Shown: positions 3,231-38,317 of the stretch, in pieces | How positions within the stretch are numbered: the first letter of the stretch is position 1 | How the letters are laid out: each line of letters starts with the position of its first letter | Virus record (IMG/VR): IMGVR_UViG_3300009285_000031 | Span: 1 to 38,317 of that record | Source: a virus | Direction: 5' to 3' (one strand) | Length of the DNA stretch: 38,317 nucleotides | Program-made: the position numbers and the translations under genes | The notes under the pieces: model-generated | What the model was told of the DNA's origin: nothing | The model's input: the letters and a program-made list of their open reading frames with translations, nothing else | Database searches by the model: none

Positions 3231-3976
3231 ACACTCAAAACCTAGTAAAACCTGAAGTCGTGGAAAATGTTGAAAATCCTGTCGATCGCATCATGCTGGC
3301 CGTAGGGCTTGCAGGTCTCGGGGGTCCCGGGCAGATGAAAAAAGATTTGACCGAAAACCTTTCTATTCATCAGGCTGTAATCGATTTTGTAAACGAGCAT
3401 TTTGTCGAGGGGATAGATTACGGCAAGGGTGATCCACGGTCAGAAAAAAAATCATTGCTTAAGCCCGGAGCGGAAAAAATCTGTAAGGCGTTCAACACTC
3501 ACCCTCACTGGACTGTAGACAAAGATATGTGGGAGATCCTTGGACGCCCGACGAATACGGCGTTTTTTACCTGCCATATAATCCACAATGTAACCGGCGC
3601 TATCATTGGAGAGGGTCGTGGCGCATGCACAATCGGGGAGAAGTATAACGGGCAGCCGGCGCGCGATACGAACGGATCAATCAAGATTGCAAAAAAAAGG
3701 GCGATGGTTGACGCCGCGCTCGATGCCTTCATGTTGTCGGAGAGATTCACTCAGGATATGGACGAAATAAAATCTTTCATCGATGAAAAAAAGCTTCTTT
3801 ATGAAGCCGTCCAAAAAATGCGTTCAGGAATAAAATCGGATTTGACCGACAGTATGTTCATTCAAAAGGTGTGTTCTCAAACTATACACCAAAAATCAAT
3901 TTCAACCCGTAAGCAGCTGGAGATGGTGAACGAAGCCGTAAGCCTATACGATTTCGCAACCGGCGAAAAAAATTGA
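3227..3976 (+). CDS. Putative single-strand annealing or recombination protein.
   Basis: The start overlaps the exonuclease stop (ATGA) and the gene lies between the exonuclease and RusA. The segments LLKPGAEKICKAF and IKIAKKRAMVDAALDAF resemble annealing proteins. The call is mainly positional. Confidence 0.35.
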   Translation: MNTQNLVKPEVVENVENPVDRIMLAVGLAGLGGPGQMKKDLTENLSIHQAVIDFVNEHFVEGIDYGKGDPRSEKKSLLKPGAEKICKAFNTHPHWTVDKDMWEILGRPTNTAFFTCHIIHNVTGAIIGEGRGACTIGEKYNGQPARDTNGSIKIAKKRAMVDAALDAFMLSERFTQDMDEIKSFIDEKKLLYEAVQKMRSGIKSDLTDSMFIQKVCSQTIHQKSISTRKQLEMVNEAVSLYDFATGEKN

Positions 3977-4432
3977 ATGGATGTGAAAATTGGTGGGGCT
4001 GTAATGGACATTCTATTTACCGTTCCAGCGGTTCCGGTTGCGCAGCCAAGGCAACGGCACGCTATTGCAAAGGGAGGATTCATCACGAATTACACCCCGG
4101 CGGCGCATCCGGTAAACCAGTTTAAGGCGGCGGTAGGGTTCGCATCGAAACAGGTCTATTCCGGGCCTGTTTTGGATTGCGCCCTGTCGGTTGACATAGT
4201 GGCGGTTTTCCCAAGGCCGAAAAGCATGGTTAAGAAAAACAAGCCTATGAACCGGGAGTGGAAAAAGTCAAAGCCGGATATAGACAATATTGAGAAGAGC
4301 GTGTTCGACGCTCTGAATGGCGTACTATGGCGCGACGACAGTTTGGTATGCTCAGGAAGTACAATGAAATTTATCGCATCCGGAGAAGAACAGCCACATG
4401 TTGAAATAAGAGTTGTTTCGCTTGAAAAATAA
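3977..4432 (+). CDS. rusA: RusA-family Holliday junction resolvase.
   Basis: The motifs AQPRQRH, KPDIDNIEKSVFDALNGVLWRDDSLV and a size of about 140 aa are typical of RusA. The true start may be ATG 4004 (MDILF), which is preceded by GGTGGGG. Confidence 0.85.
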   Translation: MDVKIGGAVMDILFTVPAVPVAQPRQRHAIAKGGFITNYTPAAHPVNQFKAAVGFASKQVYSGPVLDCALSVDIVAVFPRPKSMVKKNKPMNREWKKSKPDIDNIEKSVFDALNGVLWRDDSLVCSGSTMKFIASGEEQPHVEIRVVSLEK

Positions 4433-4559
4433 TTGAAATAAATCTTGCACGATAGAATAATGTAGTGTATGTTACATAATATGAAAACAAAAACGTATTT
4501 CGCATAATGGGTGTTGGTTGACATATTGTTTTTCTTTTTGAGTTATAGGAGTTTGCGCT

Positions 4560-4796
4560 ATGTATTTAAACAGCGATGAGGTTCTTCAGGATGCTATCGA
4601 GCAAGGTTTAATAAAATTTGGTCGCAGAGGTTCAAATAAAGTTGCTGTGTGCTGTTCACAAAGTGTAACCGTAAGCATCGAATATGTTTTTGATCTATAT
4701 CGACGCGCAAACTCAGTCAATTTGGTAGAAAAACAAAACGATCAACCAACACAGGCAGTACGCAAGCCGGAGGAACCGGCCAGCGCACATGCCTAA
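4560..4796 (+). CDS. Hypothetical protein.
   Basis: 78-aa ORF with RBS TAGGAG. It follows a 127-bp AT-rich spacer that contains TTGACA. Confidence 0.45.
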   Translation: MYLNSDEVLQDAIEQGLIKFGRRGSNKVAVCCSQSVTVSIEYVFDLYRRANSVNLVEKQNDQPTQAVRKPEEPASAHA

Positions 4797-4847
4797 ACCG
4801 TTGGGCGAAATGCCCGTTTTGAAAACCATTTATTATAGGCGGCGACA

Positions 4848-5063
4848 ATGCAATCAATAGAACGTCGGTATATGAACGATCCTTTAATCCATAAATTGGT
4901 TGATTTGCTTACACAGCAAATTGACGAGCTTAAATTAACTCCGTCAGAGATAAGAGAGTGTGCCGTGTTGGCGGCAATCAACCATGAACGTAGAAGGCTG
5001 CCGCAGTATTTTGCGGAACAAAACGGGCACATCGCCCAACAGGCCGAGGTTGACATAACATAA
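4848..5063 (+). CDS. Hypothetical protein.
   Basis: 71-aa ORF on the same strand as its neighbours. Confidence 0.4.
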   Translation: MQSIERRYMNDPLIHKLVDLLTQQIDELKLTPSEIRECAVLAAINHERRRLPQYFAEQNGHIAQQAEVDIT

Positions 5064-5130
5064 TCACGTTACGGTCAACCATTGGCCGGGACGTTGTAGT
5101 CAATAACGCCCTCTGGAGATTGTAAGCGTA

Positions 5131-5844
5131 ATGAGAACATTTAAATTACTCGATCTTTTTTGCTGTGCAGGGGGCGCTTCGGCTGGCTATGCAAAAGCGG
5201 GGTTCGAATGCGTTGGGGTTGACATTAACAATCAACCGAGATATCCGTTTGAATTTCACCAGGCCGACGCCTTCGAGTATCTGCATCAATACGGGGAACA
5301 TTTTGACGTTATACATGCAAGTCCTCCATGTCAAAGATACAGTCAGCTTACTCCTAAAGAGTATCGCGGAAACCATCCTGATTATATCGACCTGATCAGA
5401 TCGGACTTACTGACACTTGGGAAACCTTACGTAATAGAGAATGTGCCAGGGGCAAGGGCATTGCTTAAAAGCCCGCTTATGCTTTGTGGAACAATGTTCG
5501 GGTTGCGTATCCGCAGGCATCGCTTTTTCGAAATAGTACCCAGGATAGCGCCCCCGCTTCTAGCTTGCGATCATACGTTTTATCCGGTCCTGATCTCTGG
5601 TACTCACAAGCGTAAAGGCGGGCGATTCGAGTATTCGGCACAATCGTGTCGTGATGCAAGTGGGCTACATTGGATGACTCGCAAGGAAATGGATGAGGCT
5701 ATACCGCCCGCCTTTACTTGCTTCATTGGAGAGCAGCTCGTTGCACAGTTGAATGTGGAGTCGGGCGTTACATGCCTACAACACAGTATAGCAGGCTCGC
5801 AAAGCCTCGGCCCAAATGCCGAAGCGGCACTTCTGCTATGCTAG
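5131..5844 (+). CDS. DNA (cytosine-5) methyltransferase, short form.
   Basis: Motif I LDLFCCAGGAS, motif IV ASPPCQRYS and motif VI YVIENVPG are all present. Confidence 0.85.
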   Translation: MRTFKLLDLFCCAGGASAGYAKAGFECVGVDINNQPRYPFEFHQADAFEYLHQYGEHFDVIHASPPCQRYSQLTPKEYRGNHPDYIDLIRSDLLTLGKPYVIENVPGARALLKSPLMLCGTMFGLRIRRHRFFEIVPRIAPPLLACDHTFYPVLISGTHKRKGGRFEYSAQSCRDASGLHWMTRKEMDEAIPPAFTCFIGEQLVAQLNVESGVTCLQHSIAGSQSLGPNAEAALLLC

Positions 5845-5847
5845 TCC

Positions 5848-5888
5848 TTGTACGCCATTTGTAAACCTTTGGAGATTGTAGGCGGCGC
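5848..5888 (+). repeat. Left arm of the long-range helix that brackets the radical SAM gene.
   Basis: TTGTACGC-ca-TTTGTAAACCTT-tggaga-TTGTAG-GCGGCGC is complementary to 6688-6728, segment by segment. Confidence 0.8.
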
Positions 5889-6749
5889 ATGAAAATCGCA
5901 AGAGTGTTCCCGGTACAAACAGCGGCCACGCCAGTGGATCAACTGGCATTTGTGGACTGCGAGCCTGGTCTATTCGCTCCAGAGGTTGACGAGGTACACG
6001 TAAGCGTGGCCTTCTCTTGGCACATGCAACGGGCCGAGCAGTTGGCCGAGGCCTGGTCGCACGTCGCGCCGGTGCAGATCGGAGGGCCTGCCTTCAACAA
6101 ACCCGGCGCAGCATTCGTGCCCGGTCGATATGTTCGTGCTGGATACACAATAACGTCGCGTGGCTGTCCGAATCGCTGCTGGTTTTGCTCTGTCTGGCAC
6201 CGTGAACCCGGCCTTTTGGAACTGCCGATTGTCGATGGTACGAACATTCTCGACGACAACCTGCTGGCATGTTCTGAGCGGCATGTACGCGATGTTTTTG
6301 CGATGCTATCGAGGCAGCGCGGGCGTGTGGAGTTTACGGGCGGACTTGAAGCTGCGAGGCTTCAGGCTTGGCACGTAGAGCTTCTCGCCAAGTTGCGGCC
6401 CGCTCAGATGTTTTTCGCGCTGGATACTCCCGACGATGAAGAGCCGCTCAGAAACGCCTCTCGTATGCTGCGGGAGGCCGGGTTCACGCGTCAACAGATG
6501 CGAGCATATTGCCTTATCGGGGGGCCACGCGACACGCTCGAACAAGCTGAGGTGCGGCTGCGCCTATGTGTCGAATTGGGCTTTTTCCCCATGGCGACGC
6601 TATGGCGCGACCAGAAAGGTATTACAGACCCGCAGTGGCGTGCGTTTCAACGTGAGTGGGCTCGGCCCTCAATCATCTATCGGAAATGCGCCGCTGAAAA
6701 CAGTGGAAGGTTTACAAACAGCGTACAACAGGCGCAGCTTGCAATTTGA
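5889..6749 (+). CDS. Radical SAM enzyme of unknown specificity.
   Basis: The CxxxCxxC cluster in TSRGCPNRCWFCSVW lies after an N-terminal domain of about 90 aa. The ORF is 286 aa. Confidence 0.8.
   Translation: MKIARVFPVQTAATPVDQLAFVDCEPGLFAPEVDEVHVSVAFSWHMQRAEQLAEAWSHVAPVQIGGPAFNKPGAAFVPGRYVRAGYTITSRGCPNRCWFCSVWHREPGLLELPIVDGTNILDDNLLACSERHVRDVFAMLSRQRGRVEFTGGLEAARLQAWHVELLAKLRPAQMFFALDTPDDEEPLRNASRMLREAGFTRQQMRAYCLIGGPRDTLEQAEVRLRLCVELGFFPMATLWRDQKGITDPQWRAFQREWARPSIIYRKCAAENSGRFTNSVQQAQLAI
6688..6728 (+). repeat. Right arm of the long-range helix that brackets the radical SAM gene. It lies inside the 3' end of the ORF.
   Basis: GCGCCGC-TGAAAA-cagtgg-AAGGTTTACAAA-ca-GCGTACAA is the reverse complement of the 7-, 12- and 8-bp segments of 5848-5888. 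Confidence 0.8.
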
Positions 6750-6792
6750 GTACAAACAGCAAGCGTGCTCCGGGACGTTATGCGGAAATAAT

Positions 6793-6929
6793 GGGGCTTT
6801 CCGATGGTTGTAGGCGGCGATGGGAACAGAGACCGGAGCATGGTGCTACCTCGGACCGGTGAGCATTACCGAGGGGATGTCGTCGCGTCGGCATCCAGCT
6901 TAGTCGCCGCTGAACACTATGGAGGCCCC
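6793..6929 (+). ncRNA. Candidate structured RNA (bracket-motif element A).
   Basis: The region has no ORF. It has an outer helix (6793-6801/6921-6929), TTGTAG (6808-6813), a 7-bp helix (GCGGCGA 6814-6820 / TCGCCGC 6904-6910) and TGAACA (6911-6916). There is an inner hairpin CCTCGG/CCGAGG (6849-6854/6869-6874). Confidence 0.5.
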
Positions 6930-7109
6930 TTTACGTTCACATAACACGCAAAGTAATCAATAGGCCCGGCCTGTGCCGATAGGGTTAACATGGCCGCACG
7001 GTAAAGCACTTAAGGTGGGCGTACTGTGACTCACGAGTGCCGGGCCTACAGCTTACATTTGCGAACACGTTAGGCGAAATAAAAAATATTTTTCAATTTT
7101 TGTTTCTTT

Positions 7110-7631
7110 ATGAAAATTATATTATTCATGGCAACATCTTTAAATGGAATGATCGCCGGCAAGGATGGCAACGAGGATTTTTTGTCGCACGCAAACTGGG
7201 AGTCCTTTGGCAAATTAGCTAAAGAGCATGGTTGTTTTATCATCGGCAGAAAAACATACGAGGCTGTTCAAAAATGGCCATATTATAATTATAACGATAT
7301 CGAAGCGAAACTAAAAGTAGTTGTTTCCACTGGCAAAGATTTAAAATTGGCACCACCATTTTTGGTTGTCAATTCGCCAAAGGGCGCTATTGAAAAAGCC
7401 GTTGCCATGAATTTTGAGAGCGCAATTCTTACGGGTGGAAGCACAATCAACAGTGCGTTTTTAAACGAAAATTTAATCGACGAAGTAGTGATAAATATTG
7501 AGCCTGCGATTGTTGGTTGTGGTATTCCTCTTTTTGCCGAGAAGGATATAAAAAAGCGTCTGACTTTTGTTGAGTCCGTAAGAATTGCCAATGATATATT
7601 GCAAGTTAAATATAAGGTGAACAAAATTTGA
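7110..7631 (+). CDS. Dihydrofolate reductase-family protein (RibD C-terminal domain type).
   Basis: The start MKIILFMATSLNGMIAGKDG, then IIGRKTYE, LTGGSTINSAFL..LIDEVVINIEPAIVGCGIPLF and a size of 173 aa are typical of RibD_C/DHFR-like reductases. The gene is visibly AT-rich compared with its flanks. Confidence 0.7.
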   Translation: MKIILFMATSLNGMIAGKDGNEDFLSHANWESFGKLAKEHGCFIIGRKTYEAVQKWPYYNYNDIEAKLKVVVSTGKDLKLAPPFLVVNSPKGAIEKAVAMNFESAILTGGSTINSAFLNENLIDEVVINIEPAIVGCGIPLFAEKDIKKRLTFVESVRIANDILQVKYKVNKI

Positions 7632-7676
7632 AAAATAGTTTGCCGAACTAAATTATAAACTTACGGGAGGCTTTTA

Positions 7677-8126
7677 ATGACACCAGCAGCATTATCCGCA
7701 TTGTTAAGTGGAGATATTGAGAACGCCATCATCGCATCAACACCGGGCGGCATCGAGGCGCAAGAGGCCGGTGGTCAACGTGACCTATGTACAAGTTCGA
7801 AGCTCCCTAAAATATTCAATGGTGGTAGCCGTTCCGAACTTGAGGTTATGGGAGTAGTGTTTGGTGAAGATTTCGATGACCTGTTCATAAATGTTACGTT
7901 GCCGCCCTCGTGGAAAATCGAGGCTACCGATCATAGCATGTGGTCTGATTTAGTTGACGATAAGGGGGAAGTCCGCGCAAATATCTTTTATAAGGCGGCA
8001 TTCTACGATCGGAGTGCGTTCATCAGCACCGTTCGGCAAAAGGATAATGTAGGGTCACCGGCCAACAATACACAACAAACGCTACACGCAAGCCCTGAAG
8101 GGACATTCGAAGCGCACGCCGGGTAG
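7677..8126 (+). CDS. Hypothetical protein.
   Basis: 149-aa ORF with RBS GGGAGG. Confidence 0.55.
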   Translation: MTPAALSALLSGDIENAIIASTPGGIEAQEAGGQRDLCTSSKLPKIFNGGSRSELEVMGVVFGEDFDDLFINVTLPPSWKIEATDHSMWSDLVDDKGEVRANIFYKAAFYDRSAFISTVRQKDNVGSPANNTQQTLHASPEGTFEAHAG

Positions 8127-8180
8127 CGTCGGACGTTGCAATTGTCAATTCACAATATTATAGTTTTTGGAGGCTGTTAT

Positions 8181-8381
8181 ATGTTTAAAATCGGCGATTT
8201 AGTCATACCAGTTACGAGGGAATGGGACAAGAAACGGTATACCGTGCTCGATGTTTTTGTGTCTGAAAAAAGCGGTGAGCGGTTAGTGCAAGTTGGTTTT
8301 ATCGGTAGTGTCGGCACTCCAATGGCTTCTTTAATAGATGAGCGGTTGTTTGAGGCCGCCCCCAAAAAAGAAGCTGAGTAA
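8181..8381 (+). CDS. Small hypothetical protein.
   Basis: ATG at 8181 is preceded by GGAGG. The protein begins MFKIGDLVIPV. Confidence 0.5.
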   Translation: MFKIGDLVIPVTREWDKKRYTVLDVFVSEKSGERLVQVGFIGSVGTPMASLIDERLFEAAPKKEAE

Positions 8382-8641
8382 TCTTGACAACAGCATACAA
8401 CAACCGTATGGCGTTCGTTTCACACATGCCGAAGCGGCACGTCGCCATACTTTTCCGTTTCCTGTAATAGCGGGCGAGATGAATCTGACGACGAAGGAGA
8501 CCGGCTAATGTGGAGCAAGGGTTCGAGACGTAATGGGAAATTTGTTTGTGGTTTTAACAGTTGCGCCTATCATAGTGCTGCTGTTAAGCGTAATAAGTGC
8601 TCACGGTATGATAAAGCCGAGGGCGACGATTGTTTTACCAC

Positions 8642-9117: not shown

Positions 9118-9414
9118 TTGAGAGACAAATGTTTAGATTTTTTGCGTGAAGCAAGAGCTGTTATTAGCGAAGAGCAAAGCTCGGGTACTCATAGTAGTCC
9201 GCAGGATGTAACATTAACCGCGATTGATACGGCAATTTTGTGGCGTTGTCACGATTTGCATTTCCGGGAACCAGTCGTGAATGAGAGCCTCGAGCCTTGG
9301 AGCGTTCGCAATAATCAAGTTAACAAACACTACACGCATGGGCCGATGCGGCCACGTTACAAAGTAAATTCTGAAGTTGTCGGCAAGAATTCAAACAGAA
9401 GACGCAAAAAATGA
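9118..9414 (+). CDS. Hypothetical protein (start uncertain).
   Basis: 98-aa ORF whose stop overlaps the NeuB-like start (ATGA). The only start available is TTG. Confidence 0.35.
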   Translation: MRDKCLDFLREARAVISEEQSSGTHSSPQDVTLTAIDTAILWRCHDLHFREPVVNESLEPWSVRNNQVNKHYTHGPMRPRYKVNSEVVGKNSNRRRKK

Positions 9415-10046
9415 CAAGGATTATAGCAGAAATCGGAAGCACGCACGACGGAAAGCTGGCGAACTGTATGAAGGCAATAGGCTGCGCTGCGGAGGCCGGC
9501 GTGCAGGATGTTAAGTTCCAGTTGTTGGAGAAGGAGCACGCCAAAAACGGGAACGTCTCAATCTGTCCATCGTGGCTACCAGAGCTTGTGAAATACGGTA
9601 GATCTTCCGATGTAAATGTTTTCGCTTCGGCATGGTCGTTGCAGTCTATCGTTGCACTTGCAGACTCGGGAGCGACATCGATAAAGTTTGCGTATTCTGC
9701 AAGATTGGAGCAAGGATTAATTGATACGGCGCAGACTCATTTTAAAGAAGTAATCGTTTCTTCCGACGTTATGACCGGCCCGCTACCGGGAGTAATAAAC
9801 CTGTTCTGCATACCGCAGTATCCTGTTTATTTCAAAGTCGATTTCGCCGAAATATTCAACGCAGGATTCGACGGGTTTTCCGACCATACTCTCGGAATCA
9901 ACCAAACCATCGACGCCATTCGGGCAGGTGCGCGAATTATCGAGAAGCACGTCTGCCAATGTCCCGGCAGCAAGTGCCCGGATGCTCGATTCGCAATATC
10001 GTGGGATCAAGTAAAGCTACTTAAGCGTGAGGCGGAATCGATATGA
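9411..10046 (+). CDS. NeuB-family nonulosonic acid synthase-like protein. It is short, with the TIM-barrel part only.
   Basis: The motifs IIAEIGSTHDG, AGVQDVKFQ and FSDHTLGINQTIDAIRAGARIIEKH are present. At 211 aa there is no room for the usual C-terminal SAF domain. Confidence 0.65.
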   Translation: MTRIIAEIGSTHDGKLANCMKAIGCAAEAGVQDVKFQLLEKEHAKNGNVSICPSWLPELVKYGRSSDVNVFASAWSLQSIVALADSGATSIKFAYSARLEQGLIDTAQTHFKEVIVSSDVMTGPLPGVINLFCIPQYPVYFKVDFAEIFNAGFDGFSDHTLGINQTIDAIRAGARIIEKHVCQCPGSKCPDARFAISWDQVKLLKREAESI

Positions 10047-10660
10047 AAATCCTTGTCATAGGCAGCGAGGGGTCGACAGGTAGGAGGTATTGCAAAATAC
10101 TGGAAGAGATGGGGATCTCGGTATTGAAGTACGACATCGAAGACGTGAAAAATCCGCTTCCAGGATACGACAAGGTGATAATTGCGACTCCAACGGAAAC
10201 GCATCGGGAGTATTATTATATGTTACCTAAAACTGAATGGCAAAACATTCTTATCGAAAAACCTGCGTTTTCAAAAATTCCAGACCTTATCGTAGGATAT
10301 ATGTATTCTGGCATTGAGGCGAAGATGGTCTGCAATTGGGCTTTCGTTTTTCACGATGAAATTCTTCAGCCCGGCAAGCATCTTGTTTTTTACGATTGTT
10401 CAAACCACGGAAAAGAAGGGTACTGGTTTGACACTTGCCAGTTACACATCCTTTCAAACGGGAGAGGAACAATTGCGGAGTCGGCGGATGCGTTCAATGC
10501 CTCGATTGACGACAAAGAGGTAACAAGGACGATGATCGAGGCATCCTATGTCCGAATGATTGATTCGTGGATTTATCGCCCGGAAGAGTTGTGGAACGTT
10601 CAGGATTTAATACCGGAACTTTCTTACATTATCCGAAAGCAGGAAATTGAAAATGGATAA
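10043..10660 (+). CDS. Gfo/Idh/MocA-like NAD(P)-dependent oxidoreductase.
   Basis: There is an N-terminal Rossmann start (MKILVIGSEGSTGRRY), then ATPTETH and ILIEKP (the EKP motif). Confidence 0.5.
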   Translation: MKILVIGSEGSTGRRYCKILEEMGISVLKYDIEDVKNPLPGYDKVIIATPTETHREYYYMLPKTEWQNILIEKPAFSKIPDLIVGYMYSGIEAKMVCNWAFVFHDEILQPGKHLVFYDCSNHGKEGYWFDTCQLHILSNGRGTIAESADAFNASIDDKEVTRTMIEASYVRMIDSWIYRPEELWNVQDLIPELSYIIRKQEIENG

Positions 10661-11216
10661 AAGCAAGTTCGTCGTCGGAATTCAGGTGCGTTCTACAAGC
10701 ACGAGATTTCCGGGAAAGTGCAGCCGGGTTATTAATGGAGCGGAAATGTGGAGAAGTATCTTTTGTGAATGCCGGAGCACCGGGATAGACTGCAGAATGC
10801 TCGTTCCGAAAAATGATAAGCTCGTTTCGGAACTCGAAATGTTCGACAAAGAATCTATAATCACCGGCCCGGAAAACTCCCCTCTTCAGAGGTTTCAAAA
10901 CCTGCTCGCGGCAAGCACGGCAAAAAATATCATCCGTATCACCGCTGACTGCCCGTTAATTGTATCGTGGATGATTCTTGACATGGCCCACCAGTTCGAG
11001 CGAGATAATCGAACGTTCATGTACAACGAACTTGACGGGGTGGACGTGCAGATTGCCAGCAGGAATATTTTCTTTTATCCTCGATATTTAGATGAAGAGC
11101 ACGTTTTCAACATGGAGAAAATAAAAGAGCACAGACTGTATACAAAGTGGGAAATGCACCTATCTGTCGATACTAAAGAGCAGTACGAGCATATCAAATT
11201 TATTACGGGAGGATAA
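10653..11216 (+). CDS. Cytidylyltransferase-family protein (SpsF / acylneuraminate cytidylyltransferase-like).
   Basis: IQVRSTSTRFPGK and IIRITADCPLI match the CTP-transferase type 3 pattern. The ATG at 10653 was preferred over the TTG at 10647. Confidence 0.55.
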   Translation: MDKSKFVVGIQVRSTSTRFPGKCSRVINGAEMWRSIFCECRSTGIDCRMLVPKNDKLVSELEMFDKESIITGPENSPLQRFQNLLAASTAKNIIRITADCPLIVSWMILDMAHQFERDNRTFMYNELDGVDVQIASRNIFFYPRYLDEEHVFNMEKIKEHRLYTKWEMHLSVDTKEQYEHIKFITGG

Positions 11217-12356
11217 ATGATTTTTGGAGGAGCGTCAACATTTTCGAAAATGCACTGCAATTATCCGGAGAATATTCCGGAGTCGATTACCAGATCAAGT
11301 GGCCAATTTTTAGAGTTCGATGATGGAAAAGACGTTTTCGACACCGTTTCCGCCCTTGGAGCACGACTGGTCGATTGCGAACCGTCGGGCGGAATGGTGT
11401 CGCTTCCCCATAAAAGCGAAAAGATTCTTGCTCGTATGCTTTGTGGACTTTTCCCATTTGTCGAAATGGTGCGGTATGGCTGCAATGGTGCCGACGCAAC
11501 TGAGGGTGCTATCCGATACGCGCGGGCGCACACCGGTAAAAAATACGTAATCAGTTGCGGATACCACTCCTGCCAAAGCGCGTTTACGATGAATACCCCT
11601 CCATCGCTCGGGTGTATTCCCGGGTACATCGTCCAGGCAAACGATTTTAATGCGGTGATAAAGCTGCTGAATGGAGTTGACAGCGATCTAATCAGGCACC
11701 CCGAAGGCGTCGCCGCAGTAATCGTGGAACCGGTAACGCTCGATCTCGATGTCAGAGAGCAGTTGGAGGAAATACGCTCAATCACGAAAAAAAAAGGAAT
11801 CGTTCTTATTTTCGACGAGATCATTACCGGGTTTCGAGTTCCGACGAGATCGATTTCAACATGGTACGGCATTGCCCCGGACCTTATCACGCTCGGGAAA
11901 GCGCTCGGTGGCGGGTATCCGCTATCGATCATAGGCGGCCCGCGCGCCATCATGGACAAGCCGGTGTTCCACTCGTACACGTTCGCAGGGCTTCCGACTG
12001 CTCTTAACAACGCGATAAATATATGCAATATCAGAGATGTTGAATTCATCGATTTCTGGGACCGTTCAGATAAATTCATGTACGACTTCAACAATCTACC
12101 TTTTGAAATAAAGCTGAAGGGGTACGCAACCCGCGGAGTCTGGACCGGCCCCGAAATCGTGAAGTTTATCTTCTGGCAAGAGATGTTCAAAAAAGGGGTT
12201 CTGCTCGGACCGGCGTTCTTCCCGAGAATGGGGTGGACAAAAGAAGAGTATGGGCTGTTGTTGCAAAAGTCAGTAGAAACCCTCAAAGAAATACGAGACA
12301 AAGAAATTTGTCTCGTCGGGAGAATGCCTGCATCAATTTTCAAGAGGAACTCATGA
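11217..12356 (+). CDS. Class III PLP-dependent aminotransferase (related to glutamate-1-semialdehyde aminomutase).
   Basis: The motifs IFDEIITGFRV and LITLGKALGGGYPLS (PLP lysine) are present. The ORF is 379 aa. Confidence 0.8.
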   Translation: MIFGGASTFSKMHCNYPENIPESITRSSGQFLEFDDGKDVFDTVSALGARLVDCEPSGGMVSLPHKSEKILARMLCGLFPFVEMVRYGCNGADATEGAIRYARAHTGKKYVISCGYHSCQSAFTMNTPPSLGCIPGYIVQANDFNAVIKLLNGVDSDLIRHPEGVAAVIVEPVTLDLDVREQLEEIRSITKKKGIVLIFDEIITGFRVPTRSISTWYGIAPDLITLGKALGGGYPLSIIGGPRAIMDKPVFHSYTFAGLPTALNNAINICNIRDVEFIDFWDRSDKFMYDFNNLPFEIKLKGYATRGVWTGPEIVKFIFWQEMFKKGVLLGPAFFPRMGWTKEEYGLLLQKSVETLKEIRDKEICLVGRMPASIFKRNS

Positions 12357-12649
12357 TGGAGAAATGGATTGAAGCCAATAAAGCGTTGCCCCGATCAGGC
12401 GAGCGTGTTTTAGTTTACGGAATAAAACTACATAAGGTTACGATAGCGTGGTATAGTGAATTCAAAGAATGGCATTCGTTTGACGTTGGCCACAACGACA
12501 AAATATGGATGTTGAATGATTTTATAACGCATTGGAAAAAACTCCCTACACGTCCAAATGTAAAATGCCCTCACGATACCATTTTCGTATCTAACAATAA
12601 AGACGTTGTTTTATGTCAAGATTGCGGTAAGCATTTTAAAAAGAAGTAA
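12353..12649 (+). CDS. DUF551-domain protein with a C-terminal zinc-ribbon-like CxxC.
   Basis: The sequence WIEANKALPRSGERVLVYG...ITHWKKLPTRP fits the DUF551 pattern. The start overlaps the upstream stop. Confidence 0.6.
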   Translation: MMEKWIEANKALPRSGERVLVYGIKLHKVTIAWYSEFKEWHSFDVGHNDKIWMLNDFITHWKKLPTRPNVKCPHDTIFVSNNKDVVLCQDCGKHFKKK

Positions 12650-12708
12650 AAAAGATATGAGAATAAAATTAGTTTCTGTCGATTCGAAAAACTATTCAAG
12701 AGGAACAC

Positions 12709-13134
12709 ATGAAGCATAAAATCAAGCTCACCGATGTTTATTTGTTCAATTATTCAGACATGTTACTTCTGTATGGGTGTCTTTCGGAACGACCAAAAGT
12801 TGCAAACATCAGTCACGACGGAAAACTTCCTAAATTTGGAGATCATGTCGCCTTTGTTGAAAGTAAGCCGTATCGTGAATGGTATATAATCAAGGTCATG
12901 GTTGACGGAACCTGGATGAGCTGCGGAAATGTTTACATTACGAAAAACAATGAGATCGGAATTTTCATCCTGAAGTATTACCAGCGACGAGGTATCGCCC
13001 TGTCGGTAGTAAAAAGAATATCGACCGGGAAAGAGGTTTTTGCGAACATCGCGCCGAAGAATTATCCATCGCAGAAGCTTTTCAAGAAACTCGGGTTCGT
13101 TCACATTCAAAATACGTACAGGCGGTCAAAATGA
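12709..13134 (+). CDS. GNAT-family N-acetyltransferase (putative).
   Basis: The acetyl-CoA motif A-like sequence YQRRGIALSVV and the C-terminal KLFKKLGF are present. The ORF is 141 aa. Confidence 0.5.
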   Translation: MKHKIKLTDVYLFNYSDMLLLYGCLSERPKVANISHDGKLPKFGDHVAFVESKPYREWYIIKVMVDGTWMSCGNVYITKNNEIGIFILKYYQRRGIALSVVKRISTGKEVFANIAPKNYPSQKLFKKLGFVHIQNTYRRSK

Positions 13135-14153
13135 ACTATTTCATTTCAGGCGGAACCGGAACCATCGGGAAAGAGCTGGTTTCTCAACTGTTGTCAAAGG
13201 AAAATCTACTTCACCCAACGGAGAAAATCGTCATCTACTCACGCGACGAGGCGAAGCAGGCGGCAATGGCTGAAACATTCCCGCCGGGAGGAGCGTGTGG
13301 CATGCGGTACATCGTCGGCGATATATGCGACTACGACAGGCTCGTCTACGGAATGGAGGGCGCCCATGTCGTCATTCACGCTGCGGCAATGAAGAGAATC
13401 GACGCCTGCGAATACAACCCGATCGAGAGCCTGCGCGTGAACGTGACCGGATCTCTGAACGTCGCCAGAGCATGTATCGAGTGCGGAGTAAAGCAGGCTA
13501 TTTTTCTATCGACCGACAAGGCGTGTAACCCGTGTTCTGCTTATGGCGCACAGAAGGCGGCGATTGAGCGTCTATGGATCGGAATGAACAACATGACATC
13601 GAAGACGTGCTTCAACGTTGCGAGGTATGGGAATGTCTTCGGGTCTCGTGGATCGGTCATCGATAAGTGGAAAGCTGCCGCAGCCGCCGGCAAGGCGCTC
13701 ACAATAACTTCAACAGAAATGACAAGATTTTTTTGGAATATCGATGAGGCCGCATCGTTCATTATCAACCGCGTTGCAGATGCGGGCAGGAATTTTGATC
13801 GCGGCCTCATCTATATCCCTAAAATGAAGGCGCAGAAAATCGTCGATGTCGCTCTGTCGATCGGAAAAGAGATCAACGTCGTCGGGTTGCGATGCCCGGA
13901 AAAAATGAATGAAGATCTCATCAGTGAAGTAGAAGGCATGAGTGGATACGACCAGGGAGATTTTTACATCATTTACCCGATGCAACACGATTGGGCTGCG
14001 GATATCGGGACGAGAGGTAAGAATTGCGAAGACGGGTTCAGGTTATCTTCGTCAATCAACACAGGAGAATTTTGCGACACAAAACAATGCGATTCGCGGG
14101 ATTGCGGTGTTTGCAAAGTGGGTTATGGTAGAATTTGCGATAAACGTACTTAA
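13131..14153 (+). CDS. Nucleotide-sugar 4,6-dehydratase of the PseB/FlaA1/CapD family.
   Basis: The motifs ISGGTGTIGKEL, VIHAAAMKRIDACEYNP, STDKACNPCSAYGAQK and ARYGNVFGSRGSVI are present. Confidence 0.85.
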   Translation: MNYFISGGTGTIGKELVSQLLSKENLLHPTEKIVIYSRDEAKQAAMAETFPPGGACGMRYIVGDICDYDRLVYGMEGAHVVIHAAAMKRIDACEYNPIESLRVNVTGSLNVARACIECGVKQAIFLSTDKACNPCSAYGAQKAAIERLWIGMNNMTSKTCFNVARYGNVFGSRGSVIDKWKAAAAAGKALTITSTEMTRFFWNIDEAASFIINRVADAGRNFDRGLIYIPKMKAQKIVDVALSIGKEINVVGLRCPEKMNEDLISEVEGMSGYDQGDFYIIYPMQHDWAADIGTRGKNCEDGFRLSSSINTGEFCDTKQCDSRDCGVCKVGYGRICDKRT

Positions 14154-36519: not shown

Positions 36520-36526
36520 GGTTGTT

Positions 36527-36617
36527 CACAACTTATTAACATTTTATTAACAAGTAGTCCACAAGTTATCAACGCACACCATCCTCTCAAATCGTTGTTA
36601 TTAACAAGTTACCAACA
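36527..36617. promoter_or_regulatory. Cluster of iteron-like repeats and palindromes (candidate origin or operator array).
   Basis: TTATTAACA occurs three times (36533, 36544, 36598). ACAAGTTAYCAAC occurs twice (36561-36573, 36604-36616). There is a palindrome TTGTTAtTAACAA (36595-36607). The sequences TTGTTCACA and TAGTCCACA resemble DnaA boxes. Confidence 0.5.
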
Positions 36618-36652
36618 ATCGCCCCTGTGTTCTGGCTTGAACACACTTTTTT

Positions 36653-36692
36653 GTTTTGTTAGCAAAAGTACCTTGTGTTTTGTTAGCAAAAG
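36653..36692. promoter_or_regulatory. Two direct copies of a 16-mer, GTTTTGTTAGCAAAAG, each with internal dyad symmetry (operator-like).
   Basis: The copies lie at 36653-36668 and 36677-36692. The second overlaps the putative -35 element. Confidence 0.5.
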
Positions 36693-36765: not shown

Positions 36766-36951
36766 ATGACAGTACCAACCTACAGAGGAGCAACGCCAAT
36801 GCTAAACGGGGCAGCCGTTGAGATTGCGTACGAAACGTGCGACGGCTTCGGAACGCCACGGTATAAAATCCGTGGTAGTGATAAGTGGTATTCTGGAGGA
36901 TTTGCGATGAGGGGATATGACCACCAAATAGAATTAACCGAAATAAAATAA
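36766..36951 (+). CDS. Small hypothetical protein (61 aa).
   Basis: ATG at 36766 is preceded by GGGAGAAG. The longer track ORF starting at 36595 would read through the regulatory repeats. Confidence 0.45.
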   Translation: MTVPTYRGATPMLNGAAVEIAYETCDGFGTPRYKIRGSDKWYSGGFAMRGYDHQIELTEIK

Positions 36952-36973
36952 CCACCAAGTCCCGGCGATCCGG
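36947..36973 (+). repeat. Copy 1 of a 27-bp repeat that spans the stop codon and a hairpin.
   Basis: AATAACCACCAAGTCCCGGCGATCCGG, compared with 37161-37187 (26 of 27 identical). Confidence 0.85.
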
Positions 36974-36991: not shown

Positions 36992-37165
36992 ATGAATGAC
37001 CAGGTTATTATCTACAGAGCGGCTGCTGGTAAATATCGAGTGGTTACCAACCAAATATCGCCCGACAACCGCCCATCGATCGAGTCAAAGTCATGGCCGT
37101 CAATTCGCTCCGCTAAAGCGGAGAGCAAAAAATCAGGCTATGATATCTGTCAGATCGATAAATAA
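36992..37165 (+). CDS. Small hypothetical protein (57 aa, below the ORF-track cutoff).
   Basis: Hand-translated as MNDQVIIYRAAAGKYRVVTNQISPDNRPSIESKSWPSIRSAKAESKKSGYDICQIDK. RBS GGAAGAAG lies upstream. The flanking motifs match those of the previous ORF. Confidence 0.4.
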   Translation: MNDQVIIYRAAAGKYRVVTNQISPDNRPSIESKSWPSIRSAKAESKKSGYDICQIDK

Positions 37166-37187
37166 CCACCAGGTCCCGGCGATCCGG
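37161..37187 (+). repeat. Copy 2 of the 27-bp repeat. Here it forms a 7-bp hairpin, GTCCCGG-cgat-CCGGGAC.
   Basis: AATAACCACCAGGTCCCGGCGATCCGG. Confidence 0.85.
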
Positions 37188-37203
37188 GACATACTATACG
37201 AAA

Positions 37204-37391
37204 AATGGCGTTCTTTTAAATTGTAGGCGCGACGGTGCACCAGGGAAGTAGACGATCACGGATGCGTTATCACCGTAAGGGAGTATAGGTCTGCACCGAT
37301 CTACATGTTTCCGTAAGGTGGCTCGTAATGGCTCGGGCTATGTGATGCTACGTAGCGGGTGGTCGCGCTGAAAATAAGGAAGAACGCCATT
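37204..37391 (+). ncRNA. Candidate structured RNA (bracket-motif element B).
   Basis: It has a 12-bp outer helix (AATGGCGTTCTT 37204-37215 / AAGAACGCCATT 37380-37391), TTGTAG (37221-37226), a 7-bp helix (GCGCGAC 37227-37233 / GTCGCGC 37362-37368) and TGAAAA (37369-37374). Inner helices include GGTGCA/TGCACC. No credible ORF lies here. Confidence 0.55.
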
Positions 37392-37458
37392 CATCGTATA
37401 ACAGCCGCAAGTGTCAATTAAAACGTGCCACTGTGCGGCGTACACAGGAAGGAAAAAA

Positions 37459-37939: not shown

Positions 37940-38317
37940 TGTGTCGAGGAATTGGAGCTATCGCCCTGCAACGAGATCAAAGGCTTGTTTTTAAAAGCGG
38001 GATTAATTCTCACTCGGAAATCAGGAGGGTTTGCGGAGTCGCCGACCTGAAACCAGGAGAGCAGGTAAATCTGGAGGCGCTTCCCGGAAATAATTTCGAC
38101 GACTACAAAAACTGGACCATCCACGTAGATCACGACGGTGAGCCGCCGAAATGGTTTATCGATGACCGGGTCGAAACAGAGTCCCGCTTCAGGGATTTTT
38201 TTGAGAGCGAACTCAAAGAGGTTGTCGCAACAGGTAAATACGGCGGGTATCTGGACCTCCGGGGCACGGCGGTGACCTCGCTCGGGTCACTGCAGTCTGT
38301 CGGCGGGTATCTGGACC
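37939..38317 (+). CDS. 5' part of the wrap-around ORF encoding the LRR-like repeat protein (continues at 74..213 after the overlap is removed).
   Basis: ATG at 37939 follows GAGGAGG. The frame stays open to the end of the window and enters the 60-bp repeats in phase at 38245. Confidence 0.6.
   Translation, partial: MCRGIGAIALQRDQRLVFKSGINSHSEIRRVCGVADLKPGEQVNLEALPGNNFDDYKNWTIHVDHDGEPPKWFIDDRVETESRFRDFFESELKEVVATGKYGGYLDLRGTAVTSLGSLQSVGGYLD
38245..38317. repeat. Terminal redundancy: identical to 1-73.
   Basis: Exact 73-nt match to the start of the window. Confidence 0.9.

Follow-up and report, generated by a model that had tools for sequence, protein, structure and literature searches.

A small ORF-less element with self-complementary ends in a phage genome: a probable inserted cassette of an integron/CALIN-like family

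Sequence features of element B

The element analysed here, B, occupies positions 37193–37402 of the window, i.e. of the whole stretch of viral DNA that was studied (38,317 nt), and directly follows an intergenic hairpin at the end of the small ORF 36992–37165 (Table 1). It had initially been annotated as a candidate phage small RNA of about 190 nt closed by nested helices, and the terminal helices and repeated motifs on which this annotation was based can all be read in the sequence: AATGGCGTTCTT (37204–37215) is the exact reverse complement of AAGAACGCCATT (37380–37391) and gives a perfect 12-bp outer helix, TTGTAG stands opposite TGAAAA, GCGCGAC (37227–37233) pairs with GTCGCGC (37362–37368) in a GC helix of 7 bp, and the interior contains CCGTAAGG twice, the palindrome GCTACGTAGC and the complementary pair GGTGCA/TGCACC. 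An inverted-repeat search extended the arms to 37195–37233 and 37362–37400 (39 nt, 77% complementary). In folding, the 188-nt stretch of B beats 200 of 200 shuffled sequences on both strands (z-scores -4.5 and -4.0). The interior (37234–37361) folded alone, however, exhibits no excess over shuffles (z +0.46 on the + strand and -0.10 on the - strand), so the helices previously listed inside B, although GGTGCA/TGCACC is indeed present, are at the level of chance, and the entire fold signal of B resides in its terminal inverted repeat. The interior contains no ORF of at least 20 aa starting after the core, in agreement with the earlier view that B carries no plausible gene, and no homologs of it were identified in any fetched locus or viral contig collection.

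The sequence TTGTAGGCG, a "bracket core" proposed to be common to B and two other loci, occurs at exactly three sites on the + strand of the window (5876, 6808 and 37221), and a copy of CGCTGAA[A/C]A is found downstream of each of them (at 6692, 6908 and 37366). Five inverted repeats (at least 19/22 matches, within 1.6 kb) were detected in the window versus none or one in shuffles, and four of the five correspond to bracketed units of the type described below. The sole other strong inverted repeat (24 nt, 88% complementary, 13730–13753 and 13801–13824, 47 nt apart) lies within the PseB-like ORF 13131–14153. Genes for sugar-nucleotide metabolism at 9411–14153 (a NeuB-like synthase, a cytidylyltransferase, a class III aminotransferase, a GNAT acetyltransferase and a PseB-like dehydratase/epimerase) resemble a module for the biosynthesis of a nonulosonic acid of the pseudaminic or legionaminic acid type. 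At the end of the window an exact 17-nt direct repeat, CGGCGGGTATCTGGACC (38241–38257 and 38301–38317, 60 nt apart), lies within an ORF that runs off the sequence and may encode a repeated protein motif.

Searches for known RNAs gave no explanation for the bracket, in line with the initial annotation. With Rfam 15 at the gathering score there were no matches in the window, and none above threshold in six loci; permissive searches returned only chance-level matches (E≤10 around B, E≤5 across the array of related units), and the scan for tRNA and tmRNA returned none.

Table 1. Coordinates of element B, of its neighbourhood and of the sister units in the window
Feature	Position	Strand	Description
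Unit D	4800..5040	+	GTTGGGC…GCCCAAC; core TTATAGGCGGCGA before ATG 4848; ORF 71 aa
Unit E	5093..5782	+	GTTGTAG…CTACAAC; core TGGAGATTGTAAGCG; cargo C5 DNA methylase-like ORF 5131-5844
Unit A	5847..6729	+	cTTGTAC…GTACAAC, 43-nt arms; cargo radical-SAM-like ORF 5889-6749
Unit C	6777..6945	+	GTTATGC…CATAAC; core GTTGTAGGCGGCG then ATG; sole ORF 27 aa
Long hairpin spacer, C to F	6946..7068	+	CGCAAAGTAA…TAGGCCCGGC…GCCGGGCCTA…TTACATTTGCG-AACAC
Unit F	7069..7648	+	GTTAGGC…GCCGAAC, AT-rich arms; cargo RibD_C/DHFR-like ORF 7110-7631
Probable unit G	8135..8401	+	GTTGCAA…ATACAAC, weaker arms; ORF 8181-8381; hairpin 8402-8455 follows
Resident intergenic hairpin, directly 5' of the insertion	37160..37192	+	AAATAAC-CACCA-GGTCCCGG-CGAT-CCGGGAC-AT
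Unit B, left arm	37193..37233	+	ACTATACGA (degenerate GTTATACGA end box), AA mismatch, helix 2 ATGGCGTTCTT, loop TTAAA + TTGTAG, then GC clamp GCGCGAC
Unit B, cargo/interior	37234..37361	+	without ORF ≥20 aa after the core, excess folding or homologs
Unit B, right arm	37362..37402	+	GTCGCGC, loop TGAAAA + TAAGG, helix 2' AAGAACGCCAT, CA mismatch, TCGTATAAC (a …YAAC end box)
attC-like hairpin inserted along with B	37403..37439	+	A-GCCGCAAGTG…CACT-G-TGCGGC

Sister units in the window

The phage carries at least eight integron-like cassettes: B itself and a co-oriented array of at least seven units of the bracket architecture on the + strand (4800–8401), among them D, E, A, C, F and probably G. 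Complete protein genes, the longest of 297 aa, lie within the brackets of the sister units, and the cargo of the family in the window and in other contigs includes methyltransferases (C5, MT-A70, Dam), a radical-SAM protein and a DHFR-like protein. The base composition of the arms follows that of the cargo (36% GC in F, 58% GC in A). Cargo ORFs read through the right arm, and the frames across the AAC boundary are mixed, which led us to reject a constant reading frame at this point; a methylase gene split by intron-like elements A and C was likewise rejected, in view of the missing downstream coding continuation. The C5 methylase-like ORF of unit E (237 aa) aligns with no more than positions 1–81 of the 324 in the Pfam model, overruns the AAC end of its unit by 62 nt into the spacer hairpin, and may be truncated or highly diverged.

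Architecture of the units and covariation of their arms

All catalogued units of the contigs L003, L004, L006 and L029 start with GTT[A/G] and end with AAC, as do D, E, C, F and G in the window; A has CTT on the left, and B has ACT on the left and AAC on the right. The full 7-nt consensus is GTTRRRY/RYYYAAC, and all positions of the GTTRRRY box are matched in about 5 of 18 left ends (GTTGGGC, GTTAGGC twice, GTTAGGT and GTTGGGT), the rest deviating at position 5 or 6. The two ends of a unit pair over 20–43 nt: the terminal 9 nt of either end form the outermost helix, next to it is a 2x2 mismatch, which in 8 of 13 units has AA in the left arm and CA in the right arm (an A is invariant at column 11), and inside the mismatch lies a helix of 9–12 bp, whose sequence is different in every unit but remains complementary. 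The 5' side of the internal loop that follows is purine-rich and SD-like (TTGGAGG in L3d, L3g, L4b, G and L29s; TTGTAGG or TTATAGG in A, B, C, D and L3e), and the innermost element is a GC-rich clamp (GGCGGCG/CGCCGCC), usually a few bases upstream of the cargo start codon, so that loop and clamp lie just 5' of the cargo ORF in most sister units. Element B matches this layout exactly save its first two bases, AC and not GT, and its "core" thus corresponds to the SD-like loop and the GC clamp of a cassette 5' UTR. The 3' loop TGAAAA is not conserved in the sister units; a K-turn or loop E formed by TTGTAG/TGAAAA was dropped for this reason and because of the SD-like character of the 5' loop (TTGGAGG/TTGTAGG).

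That the bracket helices differ between loci yet stay complementary had been noted initially for three elements, and it extends to 13 units, in which 93.8% of the cells are paired (a percentage that is partly due to construction, since the units were found by complementarity) and 16 of 20 pairs are changed on both sides. The way in which the units were collected does not account for their constant register, their fixed mismatch or their GTT/AAC ends. The covariation score of the 13 units is 0.90, versus 0.21 for shuffles and at most 0.16 for slid registers. Among the 260 cells of the arms there are only 3 G-U cells, and on the coding strand A·C mismatches (7) are no rarer than G·T (3). This scarcity of G-U pairs and the GTTR…/…YAAC ends, which are like the core (R') and inverse-core (R'') boxes at integron cassette boundaries, point to a feature that operates at the DNA level. 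Complementary cassette ends with a fixed mismatch constitute a structural rule that has not been reported previously.

Units in other contigs

Homologs of the radical-SAM-like ORF of unit A were identified among viral contigs, and the closest of them (in L003, L004, L006 and L029, the last from a MAG) are still enclosed by the bracket, in which substitutions in one arm are compensated in the other, e.g. GGCGGCGC/GCGCCGC to GGCAGCGC/GCGCTGC; distant homologs are without it. L003/L020, L004, L006 and L029 contain arrays of 2–7 bracketed units. L003 and L029 share a unit that is 92% identical and is followed by unrelated hairpins, and the window and L029 have the hairpin after the radical-SAM unit in common and different units beyond it. 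Since units and hairpins reassort in this way, both GTT| and AAC| behave as breakpoints, and the ORF and the attC-like hairpin are not strictly linked as they are in integrons, where ORF and attC travel together and crossover takes place at the one point G|TT. In L004 one 175-nt unit is present twice with identical sequence (3897–4071 and 4226–4400), i.e. as a tandem cassette duplication.

A pattern scan of viral contigs for the helix-plus-core of B gave no matches. The scan for the 17-nt core GGAGATTGTAGGCGGCG gave 8 matches, only one of which is a true unit (on L003's own contig); the other 7 lack a cassette context and were dismissed as chance matches. BLAST searches against GenBank phages gave no match for the B region or the array. 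The genome scan identified no host, its sole bracket-carrying locus being a 2.3-kb MAG contig binned as Pirellulales.

The empty site and the insertion of B

The metagenome scan revealed only two short contigs of a near-identical phage, and one of them, L027 (88% nucleotide identity over 1.7 kb), provides an empty site exactly at window positions 37193–37439, where the window has 247 extra nt. The sequence of L027 across the empty site is …CCGGGACAT|GTAGAAGGAAAAAAAATGG, or, in the orientation of the window, …GGTCCCGGCGATCCGGGACAT|GTAGAAGGAAAAAAAATGGAAAAG, so that the conserved intergenic hairpin passes straight into the next gene. The insertion consists of the bracketed unit 37193–37402 and a 37-nt imperfect hairpin (37403–37439). 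B is absent also from L001, a more distant relative (TerL 87% identical).

The resident hairpin (37160–37192) is kept in L027, and the CCGGGAC with which it ends also precedes GTT at other unit junctions. At the right junction of B the resident GTA… sequence is retained, and comparison with the empty site revealed no target-site duplication. Placement of B after a resident hairpin ending in CCGGGAC, with the resident GTA… kept, is what one would expect of a cassette that has inserted at an attC-like site.

Other features of this region were also observed. The 28-nt repeat AAATAACCACCARGTCCCGGCGATCCGG occurs at 36946–36973 and at 37160–37187, each time 3' of one of two small ORFs, and in L027 (reverse strand, 1–330) an entirely different small ORF replaces the window ORF 36992–37165 between the same conserved hairpins, which, as judged from the sequence, appears to be a second cassette-like gene swap beside B. 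Where the small terminase gene and the early genes diverge, iteron-like direct repeats (TTATTAACA-type, with 11-nt spacing) and a 20-nt tandem pair (TTKTGTTTTGTTAGCAAAAG) are present at 36522–36618 and 36649–36692, which could be operator or origin sequences.

Junction hairpins

The segments from AAC to the next GTT are 45–120 nt long and form imperfect hairpins. Typically a single base (A) separates AAC from the stem, and 4–8 bases (…GGGAC, …AAAC or …GAACC) separate the stem from GTT; the right junction of B lacks the usual spacer of 4–5 nt. Ten junctions (51–102 nt) folded as single-stranded DNA gave z-scores of -2.0 to -5.9 versus shuffles, and the hairpin that came in with B, which has one extrahelical G on the coding strand, gave -2.2 and -3.5. 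AAC and GTT pair with each other at the hairpin base in several junctions, and stop codons are frequently located inside the hairpin. In bulged junctions the bulged bases lie mainly on the 5' arm of the bottom strand (the 3' arm of the coding strand), whereas the experimentally validated attC of TJE1, folded identically, has them on the 3' arm of the bottom strand, i.e. on the opposite one. In attC sites it is the extrahelical bases on this arm that determine the choice of strand. In order, orientation and size range the AAC…GTT junctions agree with the attC sites of integrons.

Proposed mechanism and alternative explanations

The interpretation that we favour, and regard as probable though by no means certain, is that B represents the self-complementary ends of a small inserted DNA cassette devoid of ORFs, which belongs to an integron/CALIN-like family and is moved by recombination. 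Membership of B in the cassette family and its status as an insertion are well supported. The architecture, the covarying arms, the polymorphism of the B insertion and the reshuffling of units relative to hairpins are observed; beyond these, a recombination mechanism of the integron-integrase type, acting on folded single strands, can be proposed with moderate confidence. According to this model, the B cassette would have been inserted between two early phage genes, directly 3' of the resident intergenic hairpin, and single-stranded DNA would fold into structures at whose GTT and AAC boundaries recombination moves or exchanges units. The likeliest agent would be an integron-integrase-like tyrosine recombinase, encoded by the host or by a helper, since no such recombinase was found among the window ORFs scanned. 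The bracket might hold the two cassette ends together, or lengthen the attC stem in a circular intermediate, and its pairing in the transcript might also sequester the region around the ribosome-binding site of the cargo. B itself is probably a decayed or selfish "empty" unit without recognisable cargo, and its left box, ACT and not GTT, suggests that the unit may now be immobile. It is possible that cassettes are exchanged by ordinary homologous recombination at the conserved boundaries.

The main rival is a role of the bracket in RNA processing or translation, and such a role is not exclusive of one in DNA. As an explanation of B, we consider it rather doubtful that the bracket acts in RNA, with the 5' UTR and the 3' end of each cistron pairing into a rod in a polycistronic early transcript, which would serve as a processing or stabilising site of the RNase III type and mask the ribosome-binding region; B would then be a processing site without a gene, and the shuffling of cassettes would be ordinary homologous recombination at conserved boundary sequences. 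The position of the SD-like loop and the GC clamp next to start codons in most units, the orientation of all units with transcription and the lack of a + strand terminator between the promoter-like site 36683 and B are in agreement with such a rod, as are the ORFs that run through the right arm, where ribosomes would open the stem, and the behaviour of both unit boundaries as recombination breakpoints. It is also in line with matches to the type II hammerhead ribozyme found at equivalent intergenic positions in L001. The termini of the units (near-invariant GTT/AAC, save CTT in A and ACT in B), however, have no rationale in RNA, G-U pairs are as rare as described above, with more A·C mismatches than G·T on the transcribed strand, an ORF-less unit has appeared or disappeared as one discrete piece of DNA along with its hairpin, and the composition of the arms travels with cargo of widely differing GC content. 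The hammerhead matches themselves (L001, minus strand, 4426–4485 and 4754–4810; 36.3 and 33.5 bits, E-values 1.7e-5 and 9.2e-5) score just under the Rfam gathering score of 37 and are unrelated to B; they lie in spacers between small early ORFs, syntenic to the hairpin repeats of the window and to B, and suggest that intergenic mRNA cleavage may be used in this group of phages.

That B is a stand-alone structured RNA gene of about 190 nt, whose bracket motif recurs in two other RNAs, as the initial annotation had it, is largely refuted. The fold of the whole element (z -4.5) and the threefold occurrence of the motif in the window would fit this reading, but the interior is no more structured than shuffles and has no homolog anywhere searched, B is a discrete insertion absent from the 88%-identical L027 and from L001, neither a promoter nor a terminator specific to it was detected, no Rfam family matches it, and one of the presumed sister RNAs encloses a protein-coding ORF of 861 nt; the location of the core 5' of cargo starts, the GTTR…/…YAAC ends and the rarity of G-U pairs also speak against it. 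Its small size (~210–250 bp), long terminal inverted repeats, lack of ORFs and insertion polymorphism would equally suit a MITE-like non-autonomous transposon with terminal inverted repeats bound by a transposase acting in trans, an explanation that we find highly improbable: the arms differ between copies save GTTR/YAAC, and covary, whereas a repeat recognised by a transposase would be conserved, the junctions of B lack a target-site duplication, no transposase was found among the window ORFs scanned, and the inserted segment is asymmetric, with the additional 37-nt hairpin on one side only. It is also conceivable, if quite unlikely, that the units form a distinct class of phage-borne cassettes and not a classical integron, with the paired ends as the substrate, crossovers at GTT and AAC, and reversed hairpin polarity; in that case a recombinase or mechanism other than IntI would act on the folded single-stranded DNA of replicating phage genomes, and an ORF-less unit like B would represent its most reduced, selfish form.

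How small accessory genes, for instance those of methylases and metabolic enzymes, are taken up and shuffled by phages is still only partially understood, and the window contains a dense array of integron-type cassettes together with a fresh insertion polymorphism. If the end-pairing rule reflects a recombination substrate, it would provide a searchable signature of cassette exchange in phages as well as a substrate for biochemistry. For annotation, our analysis cautions that a long "rod" structure between phage genes may be a pair of cassette ends and not an RNA gene.

Comparison with known systems

Several known systems were considered and dropped, namely retrons, CRISPR repeats, dif/Xer modules and REP/RAYT elements, which either lack their defining partner genes here or predict conserved, not covarying, arms; for a retron msr-msd ncRNA in particular, no reverse transcriptase was found in the ORFs neighbouring B, and elsewhere the bracket encloses protein genes. 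The Correia/nemis elements of Neisseria and ERIC are palindromic intergenic repeats or MITEs, which serve as RNase III substrates when transcribed. Like B, they are short, ORF-less, long imperfect palindromes, intergenic in operons and able to form a rod in the transcript. Unlike the units described here, they occur in many near-identical copies with conserved terminal inverted repeats and TA duplications, whereas each of our units has its own arm sequence and GTT/AAC ends, and most carry a gene. PeSL-type "mobile regulatory cassettes" are said to have been described by Arbiol et al. in 2010 in the hyperplastic regions of T4-type phages. They likewise consist of small accessory ORFs of the early region flanked by repeated stem-loop sequences, which apparently mediate modular shuffling; in contrast to our units, however, a conserved promoter and stem-loop is repeated between the genes, with neither cassette-specific end pairing nor GTT/AAC boxes.

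The closest relationship is to integrons. The first report of integron-type sites in phages dates from 2023, when clusters of attC sites without an integrase (CALINs), often with methyltransferase cargo, were found in phages and some of their attC sites were found to recombine with IntI1 (Qi et al. 2023, PMC9892861). No integron integrase or other tyrosine recombinase was identified among the window ORFs scanned, so only the CALIN category fits; a recombinase beside the L003 array matches the generic Phage_integrase family and not the integron-integrase model. Our family departs from integron cassettes in that the ends of its units pair over 20–43 nt beyond the 7-nt box (no bracket of at least 17/22 matches was found at the cassette ends of the canonical phage-borne arrays of TJE1 and Vibrio phage p16), the full GTTRRRY is matched by only about a quarter of its boxes, its junction spacers measure 1 nt on one side and 4–8 nt on the other, its bulges lie on the arm opposite to that in the validated TJE1 attC, and its units and hairpins reassort independently. 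On the other hand, like integron cassettes and CALINs, it consists of promoterless, co-oriented and mostly single-ORF units in tandem, with GTT… 5' and …AAC 3' of each ORF, and with imperfect AAC-to-GTT hairpins of ~45–120 nt that possess unpaired spacers and extrahelical bases (attC sites typically measure 57–141 nt). As in CALINs, no integron integrase was found nearby, the cargo is rich in DNA methyltransferases as in those of phages (PMC9892861), and in B one unit with its hairpin was inserted beside a resident hairpin, as an integron cassette would be. Among known systems, integron cassettes and CALINs come nearest to the family, which departs from them in several tested respects.
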